NCBI GenBank assembly: GCA_964644615.1
Contig: CAZXXA010000011.1
Location: 25,816-89,815, forward strand
DNA from: an uncultured Methylovirgula sp.
GTDB taxonomy: Bacteria; Pseudomonadota; Alphaproteobacteria; Rhizobiales; Beijerinckiaceae
Direction: 5' to 3'
Length of the DNA: 64,000 nucleotides
Below are positions 2 through 24,180 of the stretch, in pieces; the first letter of the stretch is position 1, and each line of letters opens with the position of its first letter. Made by a program: the position numbers and the translations under genes. The notes under the pieces are model-generated. The model ran no database searches. It had not been told where the DNA came from and saw only the letters and a program-made list of their open reading frames with translations.

Positions 2-235
2 CTGCTCGTCTTCGGCGAAGCGCCGGCGCATTGGGTGCGCGCGCAACTGCGCCGCTATATCAAGCTTGCCGCACGGCGCGAGAAGCCGCCGCGCTATAAG
101 AAATTGCTTTTGGCACCCGGTGCGCAACCCGATGAACTCGGCATGGCGACGAGCTTCGATCCGATCGATTGCCGCGAGGGCTCAACGGATGATTTGATCC
201 AGAAATTTGTCGGCGAATTATGTCTGACACGTTAG
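2..235 (+). CDS. 3' end of a gene truncated by the window edge; probable TIR-domain or TIR-associated partner of the STAND NTPase
   Basis: Frame open from base 2: LLVFGEAPAHWVRAQLRRYIKLAARR...FVGELCLTR*. Its stop overlaps the STAND start at 220. It resembles, from recollection, C-termini of TIR proteins found upstream of nSTAND1 genes. Confidence 0.5.
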   Translation: MLVFGEAPAHWVRAQLRRYIKLAARREKPPRYKKLLLAPGAQPDELGMATSFDPIDCREGSTDDLIQKFVGELCLTR

Positions 236-2496
236 CAGCGGAGTCCGTACGCGCGCCCTACCCCGGCCTCCGGTCGTTTCGCCGCGATGAGACCCATCTC
301 TTTTTCGGTCGCGAGGACTGTATCCATTCGCTCGTCGATCGTTTGGCGACGACACGCTTCCTCGCCGTGCTCGGCTCGTCCGGCACCGGAAAATCTTCGA
401 TCGTCAAGACAGGTCTTCTTGAGGCGCTGGAAATCGGCCTCATGGAAAGGGCCGGCGCGCGCTGGCGCGTCATCGACTTCCGACCCGGCGGCGCGCCTCT
501 GACCAACCTCGCTCGCGAGCTCTTGAAAACCGGCTCCAAAGGCGAGGAACCGAGCGAGATCGATGCGAAGATGCTGCGCGGCTTCCTAGCCCGCGGCCCG
601 CGCTCGATAATCGAGTGGTGCCAGGACGGCAATCTGCCGGCGAAACCGAAAACCAATCTTTTATTGCTCGTTGACCAATTTGAGGAGCTGTTCCGCTATC
701 AAGGCTATGCCGGCAAGGAGGAATCGGAAGCCTTCGTAGCCTTGCTGCTTGAAAGCGCCAACAGCCCGGAATTTCCGATCTATGTCACGCTGACGATGCG
801 CTCGGAATACCTCGGCGCCTGCGCTCTTATCGACGGGCTCGCTGAATCGATCAGCCGCGGCATGGTCTTGATTCCGCGCATGACGCGTGCGCAATGCCGG
901 CAAGCTATCGAAGGGCCGGCAGAAGTCTGCGGCATCCCGTTCCAAAAGCAAGACCCTCTTGTCAACCAGATCTTGAACGATCTCGCCAATTTCGCGCCCT
1001 GGGACGACAGCGGCTCGAGCGATCAGCTCGATCGCCTTGTGCGCCGCGCCGATCAATTGCCGCTGCTGCAATACACGCTCAATCGGATGTGGCTCGATGC
1101 CAAAACGAATGGCCAGGGCAAGCCGATCAAACTGCGGCTTGCGGACTATCAGGCAATCGGTGGCCTGAGCGGCGCGCTCAACACGCATGGCAATGCGCTT
1201 TTCGACGAGCTCGCGAAGAAAGGACTCGGCATTGTCGTTGAGAATATCTTCCGCGCCCTCGTGAATGGCACGACAGTCGCCGAGGCCGTGCGGCGGCCGC
1301 GGACATTCGGCGATCTCGTCGCACTCTGCGACGGCAATGTACAAGCAGTCGAAGAGGTCCTCTACACATTCTGCGCGCCGGGCTGCAATTTTCTCGCACC
1401 TGAGTTGCGCGATCCGGGGTCGGAGAAACGCGTGCCGCTCAATGCGGGCCAATGGATCGACATCAGCCATGAGAGCCTGATCCGCCAATGGAATAAGATG
1501 GCCGAATGGCTCAATGACGAAACCATTGCCTCGCAAAATTGGCGGCGCCTCAAAGATCGGATGGCGGATGGCGAGCAGATTAGAGGCCGCGAACTGGCCA
1601 ATCTCATCGCCTGGCGGGACGAGACCAAGCCGAACGAGGCCTGGGCGGCGCGCTATGGCGGCAATTTCAAGGAGGCCATGGCCTTCCTGGACAAAAGCCA
1701 ATCGGCCGCGACAGCCCGGCGGCGGGTGTTCTGGATGGCGGGTGTGGTGATCTTCGGAATCCTATTGGCTTCGACGATCACCGCTGGCGCACTTTGGTAC
1801 CGTGCGCAGACTCTGAATGCGACTCTGGATGCACAGAATCGAGATCTTCAAAACAGCAAGGAGCTGCTCGAAAAGCAGAAGACTCTGCTCGAAAGTCAAA
1901 CGAAGGCACTGGAATCTCAGAAGACGGCGCTCGAAACAACGCTGCGCGAAATCAGCGAGATGCGGAAAGAGAAAGTGGATAAGACCGAGCGTCTTGCCAT
2001 CTTCGGACCACCACCGGCTGGCAATGACAAGAGCGAAGACGAGGACGATAAAGTTCCAGCGACGGATAAAATATCGAATACTTTAACGGGACCGACGCCG
2101 AAGGAATTGCCGGGCAGAAAAACTCTCAAGACGATGGATCTTTACGCAGCGCTCTTAGCCGCGTCTATGAAGGTCGATTCGACAACGAGCGTTCCCATCG
2201 TCTTGGTCGACGTCGACAGCCAACCGCATCCGAAAACAATTCCGACGGCCGCACGCATATCCTATGCAGGCGCTGGAGGTACGCTCGACGACAAGATTCA
2301 ACAGAAGATGTCTGCCGACCTATCGAAAGTCGTGAGTACCTGGAACAGCGCGATCATTTTCTTCGGCGGCGATGTAAAGTCCTGGGAAGGCTATAATGCC
2401 GCTTTGCGCGCTATCGAGATCGGCTATCCGAACGTCTATTGGTATCGCGGCGGCCTTGCTGCGTGGCAGGCGCAGAATTTGAAGACCGCGCCGTGA
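220..2496 (+). CDS. nSTAND1-family NTPase with TM helix, coiled coil and C-terminal rhodanese-like domain
   Basis: PYPGLRSF..FFGRE start, Walker A GSSGTGKSS, Walker B LLLVDQFEELF, LPLLQYTL, DISHESLIRQW; TM RVFWMAGVVIFGILLASTITAGALWY; heptads LEKQKTLLESQTKALESQKTALE; rhodanese tail YNAALRA..GYPNVYWYRGGLAAW. Confidence 0.85.
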   Translation: MSDTLAAESVRAPYPGLRSFRRDETHLFFGREDCIHSLVDRLATTRFLAVLGSSGTGKSSIVKTGLLEALEIGLMERAGARWRVIDFRPGGAPLTNLARELLKTGSKGEEPSEIDAKMLRGFLARGPRSIIEWCQDGNLPAKPKTNLLLLVDQFEELFRYQGYAGKEESEAFVALLLESANSPEFPIYVTLTMRSEYLGACALIDGLAESISRGMVLIPRMTRAQCRQAIEGPAEVCGIPFQKQDPLVNQILNDLANFAPWDDSGSSDQLDRLVRRADQLPLLQYTLNRMWLDAKTNGQGKPIKLRLADYQAIGGLSGALNTHGNALFDELAKKGLGIVVENIFRALVNGTTVAEAVRRPRTFGDLVALCDGNVQAVEEVLYTFCAPGCNFLAPELRDPGSEKRVPLNAGQWIDISHESLIRQWNKMAEWLNDETIASQNWRRLKDRMADGEQIRGRELANLIAWRDETKPNEAWAARYGGNFKEAMAFLDKSQSAATARRRVFWMAGVVIFGILLASTITAGALWYRAQTLNATLDAQNRDLQNSKELLEKQKTLLESQTKALESQKTALETTLREISEMRKEKVDKTERLAIFGPPPAGNDKSEDEDDKVPATDKISNTLTGPTPKELPGRKTLKTMDLYAALLAASMKVDSTTSVPIVLVDVDSQPHPKTIPTAARISYAGAGGTLDDKIQQKMSADLSKVVSTWNSAIIFFGGDVKSWEGYNAALRAIEIGYPNVYWYRGGLAAWQAQNLKTAP

Positions 2497-22652: not shown

Positions 22653-23963
22653 TTACTCGCGCTCGATGCGGATCACCTGCGGTTTTTCGGCGATGAAACC
22701 GTCCTTCACGACGGCTTCGAGCGCCTGATGAATATGCTTTTCATAGGTCGCATGGGTGATCAAAATCACAGGTACGGCAGTATCCGCCCCCGCCTTCTCG
22801 CCCGGGCGGCGGCGCTGCATGATGCTTTCGAGCGAGATGTTGCACTCCGCCATGCGCGTCGCAATCGCCGCGGCGGCGCCCGGCCGGTCATAGACCGAAA
22901 GACGGATATAATAACCGCCTTCATGCATCTGGATCGGCGCCCGTTCGAGCGGCGCGAGCGCCGCGACCGGCAGCGCGAAAGGCGACAGGCGCAGGCCTCG
23001 CGCAATATCGGCGATATCGGCGACGACGGCAGACGCAGTGGCCTCGCCGCCAGCACCCGGACCTACGAGCGTCATCTCATGCACGGCATCGGCATCGATC
23101 GTCACCGCATTGGTAACGCCCATAACCTGGGCAATCGCTGAAGAGCGTGGCACCATCGTCGGATGGACGCGCTGCTCGATGCCGGAAGCGGTGCGATTGG
23201 CGACACCCAAAAGCTTAATGCGATAGCCGAGCTCGGCGGCGGCTACGATATCGGCGAGCGAGATCGATTCGATGCCTTCGATCGCGATCGCCTCGCAGTC
23301 GATTGTGGTGCCAAAGGCAAGCGCGGTGAGGATCGCGAGTTTATGCGCCGTATCCTGGCCGCCGATGTCAAAGCTTGGATCGGCTTCGGCATAGCCAAGC
23401 CGCTGCGCTTCGGCGAGACAATCGGCGAAGGAGAGCTTGTCCGTCTCCATGCGCGACAGGATGTAGTTGCAGGTGCCGTTCAGAATGCCGTAGACGCGCT
23501 CGACGCTGTTGCCGGCGAGCGCTTCGCGCAGCGCCTTCACGATCGGAATGCCGCCGGCGACGGAGGCTTCGAAGGCAAGCGCAACACCCCTTTCTTCGGC
23601 TTTTTTGGCGAGCGCCATGCCATGTTTGGCGAGCAGCGCCTTATTCGCGGTGACGACGGATTTGCCGGCGTCAATCGCCGCGGAGACGGAGGCGAGCGCG
23701 GCACCATCGGCACCGCCGATGACTTCGACGAAGAGATCGACGTCGCGCATCGTCGCCAGCGCCACGGGATCATCGATCCAGGCGATATTGGTGAGATTGA
23801 CGTTACGCGCCTTGTCGCGGTTGCGGGCCGAGACCGCGATAACCTCGATCTTCCGCCCGGCCATGGCGGCGAGAGCTTTATGGCGGCGGTCGAGAAGGCG
23901 CAGGACAGCGAGGCCCACTGTGCCGAGACCGGCAATGCCGACGCGCAGGGGTGGCAACATCAA
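22653..23963 (-). CDS. hom: Homoserine dehydrogenase
   Basis: GIAGLGTVG, VVTANK, FEASVAGGIP, GILNGTCNYIL, C-terminal ACT domain. Confidence 0.97.
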   Translation of the reverse strand: MMLPPLRVGIAGLGTVGLAVLRLLDRRHKALAAMAGRKIEVIAVSARNRDKARNVNLTNIAWIDDPVALATMRDVDLFVEVIGGADGAALASVSAAIDAGKSVVTANKALLAKHGMALAKKAEERGVALAFEASVAGGIPIVKALREALAGNSVERVYGILNGTCNYILSRMETDKLSFADCLAEAQRLGYAEADPSFDIGGQDTAHKLAILTALAFGTTIDCEAIAIEGIESISLADIVAAAELGYRIKLLGVANRTASGIEQRVHPTMVPRSSAIAQVMGVTNAVTIDADAVHEMTLVGPGAGGEATASAVVADIADIARGLRLSPFALPVAALAPLERAPIQMHEGGYYIRLSVYDRPGAAAAIATRMAECNISLESIMQRRRPGEKAGADTAVPVILITHATYEKHIHQALEAVVKDGFIAEKPQVIRIERE

Positions 23964-24180
23964 TGCAAGCCTTAGGAGTCCGAACCGCGGGAATTCAGCG
24001 CGAATGCGCTTTCAGCCGGCGATCGGCCAAGCCCTTGAGAGGAGCAGCGCTTCGGCACCGGCGCCAGCGGTTCTGCCCCATTTCCGCGGCGCGATCAAGG
24101 AAGCTGCCGGGCGCTTTCCAAAGCCGCCTAAGCCCCAGCGCGGACACCGCTTTTGGGCCGGAGCGCCGCCGCCATAATCG

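Follow-up and report, generated by a model that had tools for sequence, protein, structure and literature searches.

To our knowledge, the bacterial STAND/NLR-like receptors characterised so far recognise intracellular proteins. The architectures most similar to the one described here, nSTAND1+TM+BetaPropeller and nSTAND1+TM+TPR (TM, transmembrane segment), are contained in the supplement of Kaur, Burroughs, Iyer and Aravind 2021 (PMC8195603), and the layout "nSTAND1+TM+..." has 412 occurrences in the accessible part of its supplementary tables. The word "rhodanese" is absent from those supplementary text files of the same paper (PMC8195603) that were available, and a rhodanese fused to nSTAND1 is unmentioned in the accessible main text or supplementary text of Kaur 2020 and 2021. 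For bNACHT proteins, Kibby et al. (bioRxiv 2022.07.19.500537) listed a rhodanese domain among the associated domains, and periplasmic sensing was predicted for the forms bearing a transmembrane segment. Here, we analyzed a stretch of 64,000 nucleotides (nt) from an uncultured Methylovirgula sp. (GenBank assembly GCA_964644615.1, contig CAZXXA010000011.1, positions 25,816 to 89,815), which is called the window below. Near its start, the window encodes an nSTAND1 receptor, P0001, that ends in a rhodanese-like domain lacking the cysteines of its family. The receptor gene is preceded by a gene for a TIR protein and, further upstream, by a gene for a putative secreted YbjN-like protein.

The rhodanese-like domain and its missing cysteines

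The Pfam profile Rhodanese (PF00581; cut-off 22.2 bits) matched amino acids (aa) 660-751 of P0001. The score was 28.6 bits with the full-length protein and 32.1 bits when the tail alone was used. The best NCBIfam match was TIGR03865 (PQQ_CXXCW; aa 622-756, nt 2083-2487; E 5.5e-15). Its score of 55.7 bits (59.9 bits were also obtained) is below the curated cut-off of 128.05 bits, and the C-x(3-4)-C-W motif of TIGR03865 is not present in the P0001 domain, which reads G-GDVK-S-W. An AlphaFold2 model of aa 611-758, based on an alignment of 47 sequences, had a mean pLDDT of 97.4 and a pTM of 0.92. When this model was compared with the PDB using Foldseek, all top matches were rhodanese-like (6mxv, 3nhv, 2hhg, 3fs5 and others), with a probability of 1.00, a TM-score of about 0.6 and an identity of at most 21%; no close relative of the domain is found among the solved structures. 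Because of the pLDDT and pTM values of the model, and because the top Foldseek matches were solely rhodanese-like, we regard the predicted rhodanese fold as certain.

The loop F714 F715 G716 G717 D718 V719 K720 S721 W722 is encoded at nt 2359-2385, and the same alignment columns read FFC-x4-CW in the relatives. The alignment indicates that two cysteines were lost, at G716 and S721, and not one. The column of the loop-first cysteine, which marks an active rhodanese or sulfurtransferase, is occupied by Gly716. No cysteine is present behind the transmembrane helix (aa 528-758), and all eight cysteines of P0001 are located at aa 34-389.

An earlier note on this DNA had proposed a rhodanese-like domain without its catalytic cysteine at the STAND C-terminus, at positions 2080-2496. 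This proposal was borne out by the Pfam score, the TIGR03865 match, the structural model with its Foldseek matches and the lack of a loop cysteine, an agreement well beyond what chance would give. The coordinates fit the TIGR03865 match, the quoted peptide strings are present, and the glycine placed at nt 2365-2367 is G716 with the codon ggc. A non-rhodanese fold had been named as the result that would overturn the proposal; the profile search and the structure prediction of the isolated domain both gave a rhodanese fold. The note was right that the loop cysteine is lost, but it had counted a single missing residue.

Next, the distribution of the cysteines in the family was analyzed. When 1.84 billion representative proteins were searched with the domain using HMMER, 957 relatives were obtained at E<=1e-3; the majority of the best 150 contain FFC-x4-CWESYN. 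From these proteins and from fetched loci, a set of 186 domains was drawn. Both cysteines are present in 131 of the domains, and neither is present in 24 domains that are fused to nSTAND1. Both were kept in 13 other nSTAND1-fused domains, which belong to longer proteins with TPR repeats behind the domain. In a maximum-likelihood tree, the 24 cysteine-less STAND domains and seven short fragments with the same motif formed one clade with an SH-aLRT support of 100. The 31 tree rows of this clade were nested among about 130 cysteine-containing domains. The members stem from two phyla, i.e., from Alphaproteobacteria (Methylovirgula-like metagenome-assembled genomes (MAGs) and Xanthobacteraceae) and from one acidobacterial MAG.

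The remainder of the domain signature was retained. E606, T626, P627, P631, G632, T638, D664 and F714, and likewise W722, Y725, N726, R730, G735, W741-G745 and W749, are kept to at least 92% in the cysteine-less and in the cysteine-containing group. Among orthologues, the identity is 41-84% for the domain and 45-97% for the NTPase; the domain evolves faster, and its conservation pattern indicates that it is clearly constrained. The missing cysteine, taken alone, could have been explained by a recent inactivating mutation or by the decay of a remnant. This explanation is effectively refuted, as the cysteine-less state is common to all 31 tree rows of one clade in two phyla, the remaining signature residues are strictly conserved, and the open reading frame (ORF) 220..2496 is intact. 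The strain-level mutation that the earlier note had considered as a possible outcome of a survey of STAND-fused homologues was thus not found: the close orthologues also lack the cysteines, and the tree indicates a loss that became fixed across one monophyletic clade.

The composition of the former active-site loop was determined for 37 non-identical cysteine-less members. Position 716 is Gly in 19, Ser in 17 and Cys in one of them. Position 718 is Asp in 30 and Gly in seven members, i.e., an Asp typically takes the place of the loop Gly of the family, and position 720 is Lys in 29 members. Position 721 is variable, with 14 Asp, 11 Ser, eight His and four Asn. The occurrence of Ser at position 716 in about half of the clade and the common Asp718 would be compatible with a domain that is still an enzyme and uses a chemistry other than that of cysteine, be it with a Ser/Asp nucleophile or in a phosphatase-like reaction. 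We consider this highly improbable. Gly is found at position 716 in P0001 and in more members than Ser, and no candidate nucleophile is conserved at 716 or 721 across the clade. Furthermore, rhodanese and Cdc25 chemistry depends on the loop cysteine.

One member of the cysteine-less clade, the 291-aa metagenome protein P0030, reads FFCHDAKSW and therefore has the first cysteine and not the second, and P0032, which is adjacent to P0030, reads FFSHDAKSW. The cysteine of P0030 may have arisen by reversion from Ser, or P0030 may be an intermediate that was retained. At least four further lineages of the family are also cysteine-less (P0021, P0144, P0145, and P0027, which has two tandem domains), suggesting a use of the family scaffold that does not depend on the cysteines.

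Several additional observations concern the wider family. The secreted caspase (Peptidase_C14) proteins P0009-P0011, P0022 and P0023 each contain one or two C-x4-C-W rhodanese-like domains, and domains of this family are also fused to TIR_2, Trans_reg_C, PDZ, Sel1 and TPR modules. These fusions suggest that C-x4-C-W domains commonly serve as extracytoplasmic modules in proteins of signalling or conflict. The genome also encodes a bona fide PQQ_CXXCW protein (L001:1093-1791 on contig C46; 229 bits) with the C-x3-C-W motif FYCQRQCW. It is located on a very long branch of the domain tree, and most relatives of the STAND domain are of the C-x4-C-W type. In a PDB sequence search, plant leucine-rich repeat (LRR) receptor kinases were the top matches to query aa 18-45 (NTLTGPTPKELP...). 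These matches were rejected as chance LRR-like similarity; each stretch had a non-significant E-value, and the segment belongs to an N-terminal extension that is conserved in the family. Window positions 2068-2150 (aa 617-644, NTLTGPTPKELPGRKTL...) resemble one plant-type LRR unit; they are modelled within the domain and are conserved across the whole rhodanese family.

Predicted location, TIR partner and a co-inherited YbjN-like gene

For comparison, 80 loci with nSTAND1 relatives were taken from a collection of species genomes. In nearly all of them, one transmembrane-like hydrophobic segment directly follows the NTPase. A WD40 propeller forms the module behind this segment in about 31 of 66 nSTAND1 relatives, while the closest NTPase relatives have TPR arrays, polytopic membrane regions or unassigned domains at this place. 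A rhodanese-like domain fills the slot in a minority of the relatives. This slot behind the NTPase is where STAND proteins classically carry their variable sensor arm. In P0001, the segment consists of 25 strongly hydrophobic residues (aa 503-527). The free-standing relatives of the domain and the caspase-rhodanese fusions have signal-peptide-like N-termini. Because the ATPase must be cytoplasmic, because RRR precedes the transmembrane helix, and because the relatives carry such N-termini, the domain is predicted to be periplasmic and the NTPase cytoplasmic. The locus hence conforms to an nSTAND1+TM+sensor protein with a TIR partner, the transmembrane helix and the topology being predictions. 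The predicted periplasmic location had no place in the earlier note, and it changes what could be sensed.

The upstream gene encodes the TIR partner P0025. It starts 1342 nt before the window, and its stop codon at positions 233-235 lies behind the start of the STAND gene (220), so that the two genes overlap by 16 nt. The N-terminal region of P0025 (aa 33-107) was matched by the Pfam profiles TIR_2 (E 1.5e-11) and TIR (E 6.7e-8). Of 60 homologues, at least 80% retain the putative catalytic Glu95, which is expected for NAD+ cleavage. In most of the 80 loci, and in many phyla, the gene directly preceding that of nSTAND1 encodes a TIR homologue. The STAND gene is translationally coupled to the TIR gene, and the pairing is conserved across phyla.

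The domain might also serve as a tether or assembly module that anchors or oligomerises the receptor in the envelope, with sensing left to other parts, for example to the cytoplasmic NTPase or to the TIR protein with its C-terminal domains. The 525-aa TIR protein has two further conserved regions, and the conservation of the rhodanese-like domain is moderate and not diversifying, both of which would fit such a function. Nevertheless, we regard it as distinctly unlikely, as close NTPase relatives carry WD40, TPR and other modules interchangeably in this slot, which is the usual behaviour of STAND sensor arms, and no wall-binding or outer-membrane-binding motif was found.

The more specific lead is the YbjN-like gene, which is divergent from the TIR gene and was the only additional neighbour that proved to be conserved. 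Its product starts with a signal-peptide-like sequence, has a Q/P-rich linker and a YbjN domain, and contains a conserved cysteine pair. The Pfam profile PF10722 matched this protein with an E-value of 5.1e-14 and 53 bits at a cut-off of 22. The core of its AlphaFold2 model had pLDDT values above 85 and matched E. coli YbjN (6vu7) with a probability of 0.99 and a TM-score of 0.51; the Foldseek E-values for this core were weak, and chaperones of type III secretion systems were also matched at modest scores. By profile and fold, the linked protein is a member of the YbjN family (PF10722).

The YbjN-like gene is present in the locus of the window and in L037, L028 and L056. When metagenomes were scanned with the cysteine-less domain, it was found in all nine further STAND-fused loci that had enough upstream flank (L104, L106-108, L110, L113/115, L116 and L117). 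Taken together, every cysteine-less locus with enough flank, i.e., about ten distinct loci, carries a divergent YbjN-like gene. The gene was found in none of about 70 other nSTAND1+TIR loci, nor in the loci with cysteine-containing rhodanese domains. The gene for the putative secreted YbjN-like protein is strictly linked to the cysteine-less clade, and this link is new here. Apparent YbjN matches in several other loci were traced to ORFs antisense to the TIR gene and were lost when the YbjN domain alone was used as the query.

One short metagenome contig (Ga0137409_10472250, L109:1-1076) has a different arrangement. It carries a YbjN-like gene (3-533, minus strand) at a distance of 62 nt from a cysteine-less rhodanese ORF (595-1074) that reads FVSRDAKHW. 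No TIR or STAND gene lies between the two, and the ORF contains no transmembrane or signal sequence. This contig could contain a pair that stands alone, or it could have arisen by a deletion or as a chimera of the assembly.

An alternative explanation, in line with the earlier note, is that the domain is a sensor of a small molecule or anion, in which the cysteine-less loop with Asp718 and Lys720 binds a periplasmic ligand directly and the YbjN-like gene is a mere neighbour. Active-site loops of rhodaneses are anion cradles, the loop has been remodelled in a conserved manner at these two positions (D in 30/37, K in 29/37), and the relatives are tied by annotation to periplasmic catabolism dependent on pyrroloquinoline quinone (PQQ; TIGR03865). 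However, no ligand is indicated by the results, and the strict co-inheritance of a gene for a secreted protein with exactly the cysteine-less clade would be left unexplained. We therefore consider this explanation rather unlikely.

With moderate confidence, we read the rhodanese-like domain of P0001 as a periplasmic binding module without catalytic activity that fills the sensor slot of a membrane-spanning NLR-like NTPase. It probably acts together with the secreted YbjN-like protein, and a cytoplasmic TIR protein would be the effector coupled to it. In the proposed mechanism, the domain, devoid of thiol chemistry, would serve for binding in the periplasm. Its likeliest partner would be the co-inherited YbjN-like protein, either itself or something presented by it. 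A change in this periplasmic interaction would be relayed via the stalk and the transmembrane helix to the cytoplasmic NTPase, which would then oligomerise and switch on the TIR partner, resulting in NAD+ cleavage or signal production. A bolder version, which we put forward as possible and on the doubtful side, is that the cysteine-less rhodanese-like domain and the YbjN-like protein form a two-part periplasmic sensing device (bait, guard or co-receptor) for a TIR-firing, membrane-spanning NLR-like receptor.

Several points weigh against a binding module with a YbjN-like partner. The cysteine-less clade is monophyletic, so that the linkage with the YbjN-like gene may reflect one ancestral event and the roughly ten loci are not independent. 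Linkage does not prove contact, and members or paralogues of the YbjN-like family also occur elsewhere without STAND, TIR or rhodanese neighbours. The identity of 41-84% among orthologues makes the domain moderately variable, not hypervariable like many immune sensors. Because the 13 other nSTAND1-fused rhodanese domains keep both cysteines, the loss is not required on a STAND receptor. In addition, PADLOC has no model for the STAND+TIR pair beyond weak P-loop and TIR similarity.

The earlier note had interpreted the domain as a pseudo-enzyme repurposed as a ligand sensor. The cysteine-less fold and the variable sensor slot agree with the general idea. Inactive rhodanese domains that act as regulatory modules are said to have been described by Bordo and Bork in 2002. 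The term pseudo-enzyme is provisional because our literature search found no functional study of the cysteine-containing parent family, i.e., of C-x4-C-W/PQQ_CXXCW rhodanese proteins, and the sole specific lead is a protein partner and not a small ligand.

If such a two-part device exists, this STAND receptor would monitor the envelope space via a dedicated soluble partner, and not proteins of invaders in the cytoplasm. Its sensor arm, predicted to lie in the periplasm, is small (148 residues) and well folded (pLDDT 97), and would be easier to study than the giant WD40 and TPR versions. The receptor would be a tractable case in which to ask how an extracytoplasmic signal reaches a STAND NTPase and its TIR effector. 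The domain also offers a clean natural experiment on an uncharacterised rhodanese family, as one clade has dropped both cysteines and kept everything else; this implies a cysteine-independent binding function of the family scaffold.

Gene layout and genomic neighbourhood

The features of the locus are compiled in Table 1. P0001 is a member of the nSTAND1 STAND NTPases (PF20703), based on the profile match and on two intact Walker motifs, i.e., Walker A (GSSGTGKSS, aa 52-60, nt 373-399) and Walker B (LLLLVDQFEE, aa 147-156, nt 658-687). The region between the transmembrane helix and the linker can be assigned as a helical stalk by inference only. Its identity is 9-38% in orthologues with an NTPase identity of 64-89%. 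In the linker, G596 and P599 are conserved within the clade, and E606 is conserved across the family.

Table 1. Features of the P0001 locus (window coordinates unless a locus or contig is given)
Feature	Position	Strand	Description
YbjN-like gene	L003:9728-10303 (= contig 23543-24118), ~1.7 kb upstream of window	-	191 aa, divergent from TIR gene
Upstream TIR-protein gene (P0025), 3' end	2..235	+	whole gene L003:10658-12235, 525 aa
STAND gene (P0001)	220..2496	+	758 aa: nSTAND1 NTPase, transmembrane helix, coiled coil, cysteine-less rhodanese-like domain
nSTAND1 STAND NTPase module	256..1566	+	aa 13-449, Pfam PF20703 E 2.5e-81
Single predicted transmembrane helix	1726..1800	+	aa 503-527, RRR just before; hydropathy scan and sequence
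Predicted periplasmic coiled-coil-like helical stalk	1801..2004	+	aa 528-595; heptad-like, Q/E/K/L-rich by inspection
Pro/Gly linker and N-terminal extension of domain	2005..2082	+	aa 596-621
Rhodanese-like domain, C-x4-C-W family, without its cysteines	2083..2487	+	aa 622-756
Former active-site loop G716-G-D-V-K-S721-W722	2365..2385	+	G716/S721 in cysteine columns, D718 in Gly column

The other neighbouring genes were included in a co-occurrence test with the 80 related loci, and each recurred in zero to two of them, mainly in the closest relative L037. The recurrences in L037 represent synteny by descent. For this reason, the genes for the repeat protein, the lectin-like, FHA-trypsin and TPR-kinase proteins, the sigma and anti-sigma factors, the channel-like protein, the ARPP-1 protein and P0026 were rejected as parts of the system. 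No conserved downstream gene was found among the cysteine-less loci.

Two genes are located just upstream of the YbjN-like gene. One encodes an ARPP-1 domain protein (L003:6524-7564, minus strand; Pfam PF20208, E 4e-51), and the other the 644-aa protein P0026 without a Pfam match (L003:7769-9703, minus strand). P0026 recurs in L037 and L041, and the ARPP-1 gene does not recur in the related loci. The ARPP-1 family has been described in ADP-ribose-related conflict systems. A Pfam analysis of the genes further upstream did not reveal an ARG or rhodanese-phosphatase gene beside the ARPP-1 gene. In several loci, additional nSTAND1 paralogues lie a few kb from the rhodanese-type gene (L028:12473-15448, L056:9449-13978, L116:6577-7545 and L037:2-1669), forming tandem arrays of STAND receptors.

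The STAND-fused version of the domain was found solely in the genome of the window among 200 species genomes of the same family. Other genomes of the family encode short CXXCW-type proteins with 25-39% identity. Four of five species of the same genus had no match, and the fifth had a short protein with 30% identity. The rhodanese-type architecture was not found in plasmid records; none of the 136 matching records covered at least 80% of the query. No system model of PADLOC-DB v2 matched the locus, and the weak local matches were confined to mad8 over the P-loop region (E 6e-6) and PDC-S66 over TIR (E 7e-8). The patchy spread over two phyla fits an accessory module that moves horizontally.

Comparison with known systems

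The P0001 domain is part of a large branch of rhodanese-like domains, the C-x4-C-W branch; the PQQ_CXXCW proteins are relatives of this branch. With TIGR03865 and the wider C-x4-C-W family it shares the fold, the TP..PG stretch, D664, F714, W722, YNAxLRA, WYRGG and W749. The extracytoplasmic location is also common to both, as indicated by the signal peptides of the relatives and predicted for P0001 from the position behind the transmembrane helix. In contrast to this family, P0001 has G716 and S721 in place of the cysteines, its score is below the cut-off, and the domain is fused to a STAND protein instead of being free-standing.

The nSTAND1+TM+BetaPropeller and nSTAND1+TM+TPR proteins with TIR partners have the same PF20703 NTPase clade, the same single transmembrane segment behind the NTPase, and an upstream TIR gene. 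P0001 differs from them by having a single cysteine-less rhodanese-like domain and not repeat arrays, and the gene for the secreted YbjN-like protein is an extra component of its loci that is specific for the clade.

The MAP-kinase-binding domain of MKP5 (PDB 2ouc) was among the Foldseek matches to the P0001 domain, with an identity of about 15%. It is eukaryotic, cytoplasmic and fused to a phosphatase, in contrast to the P0001 domain. Both have a rhodanese fold without the catalytic cysteine, which in MKP5 serves for protein docking; by analogy, the P0001 domain may also bind a protein.

Lastly, the locus can be compared with the anti-phage STAND systems Avs and bNACHT. P0001 belongs to another NTPase clade, its effector resides on a separate protein, and its sensor is predicted to be outside the cytoplasm. 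The P0001 system has no PADLOC system match and no known defence phenotype. Nevertheless, the tripartite organization of effector, STAND NTPase and C-terminal sensor is the same, and TIR is a common effector.

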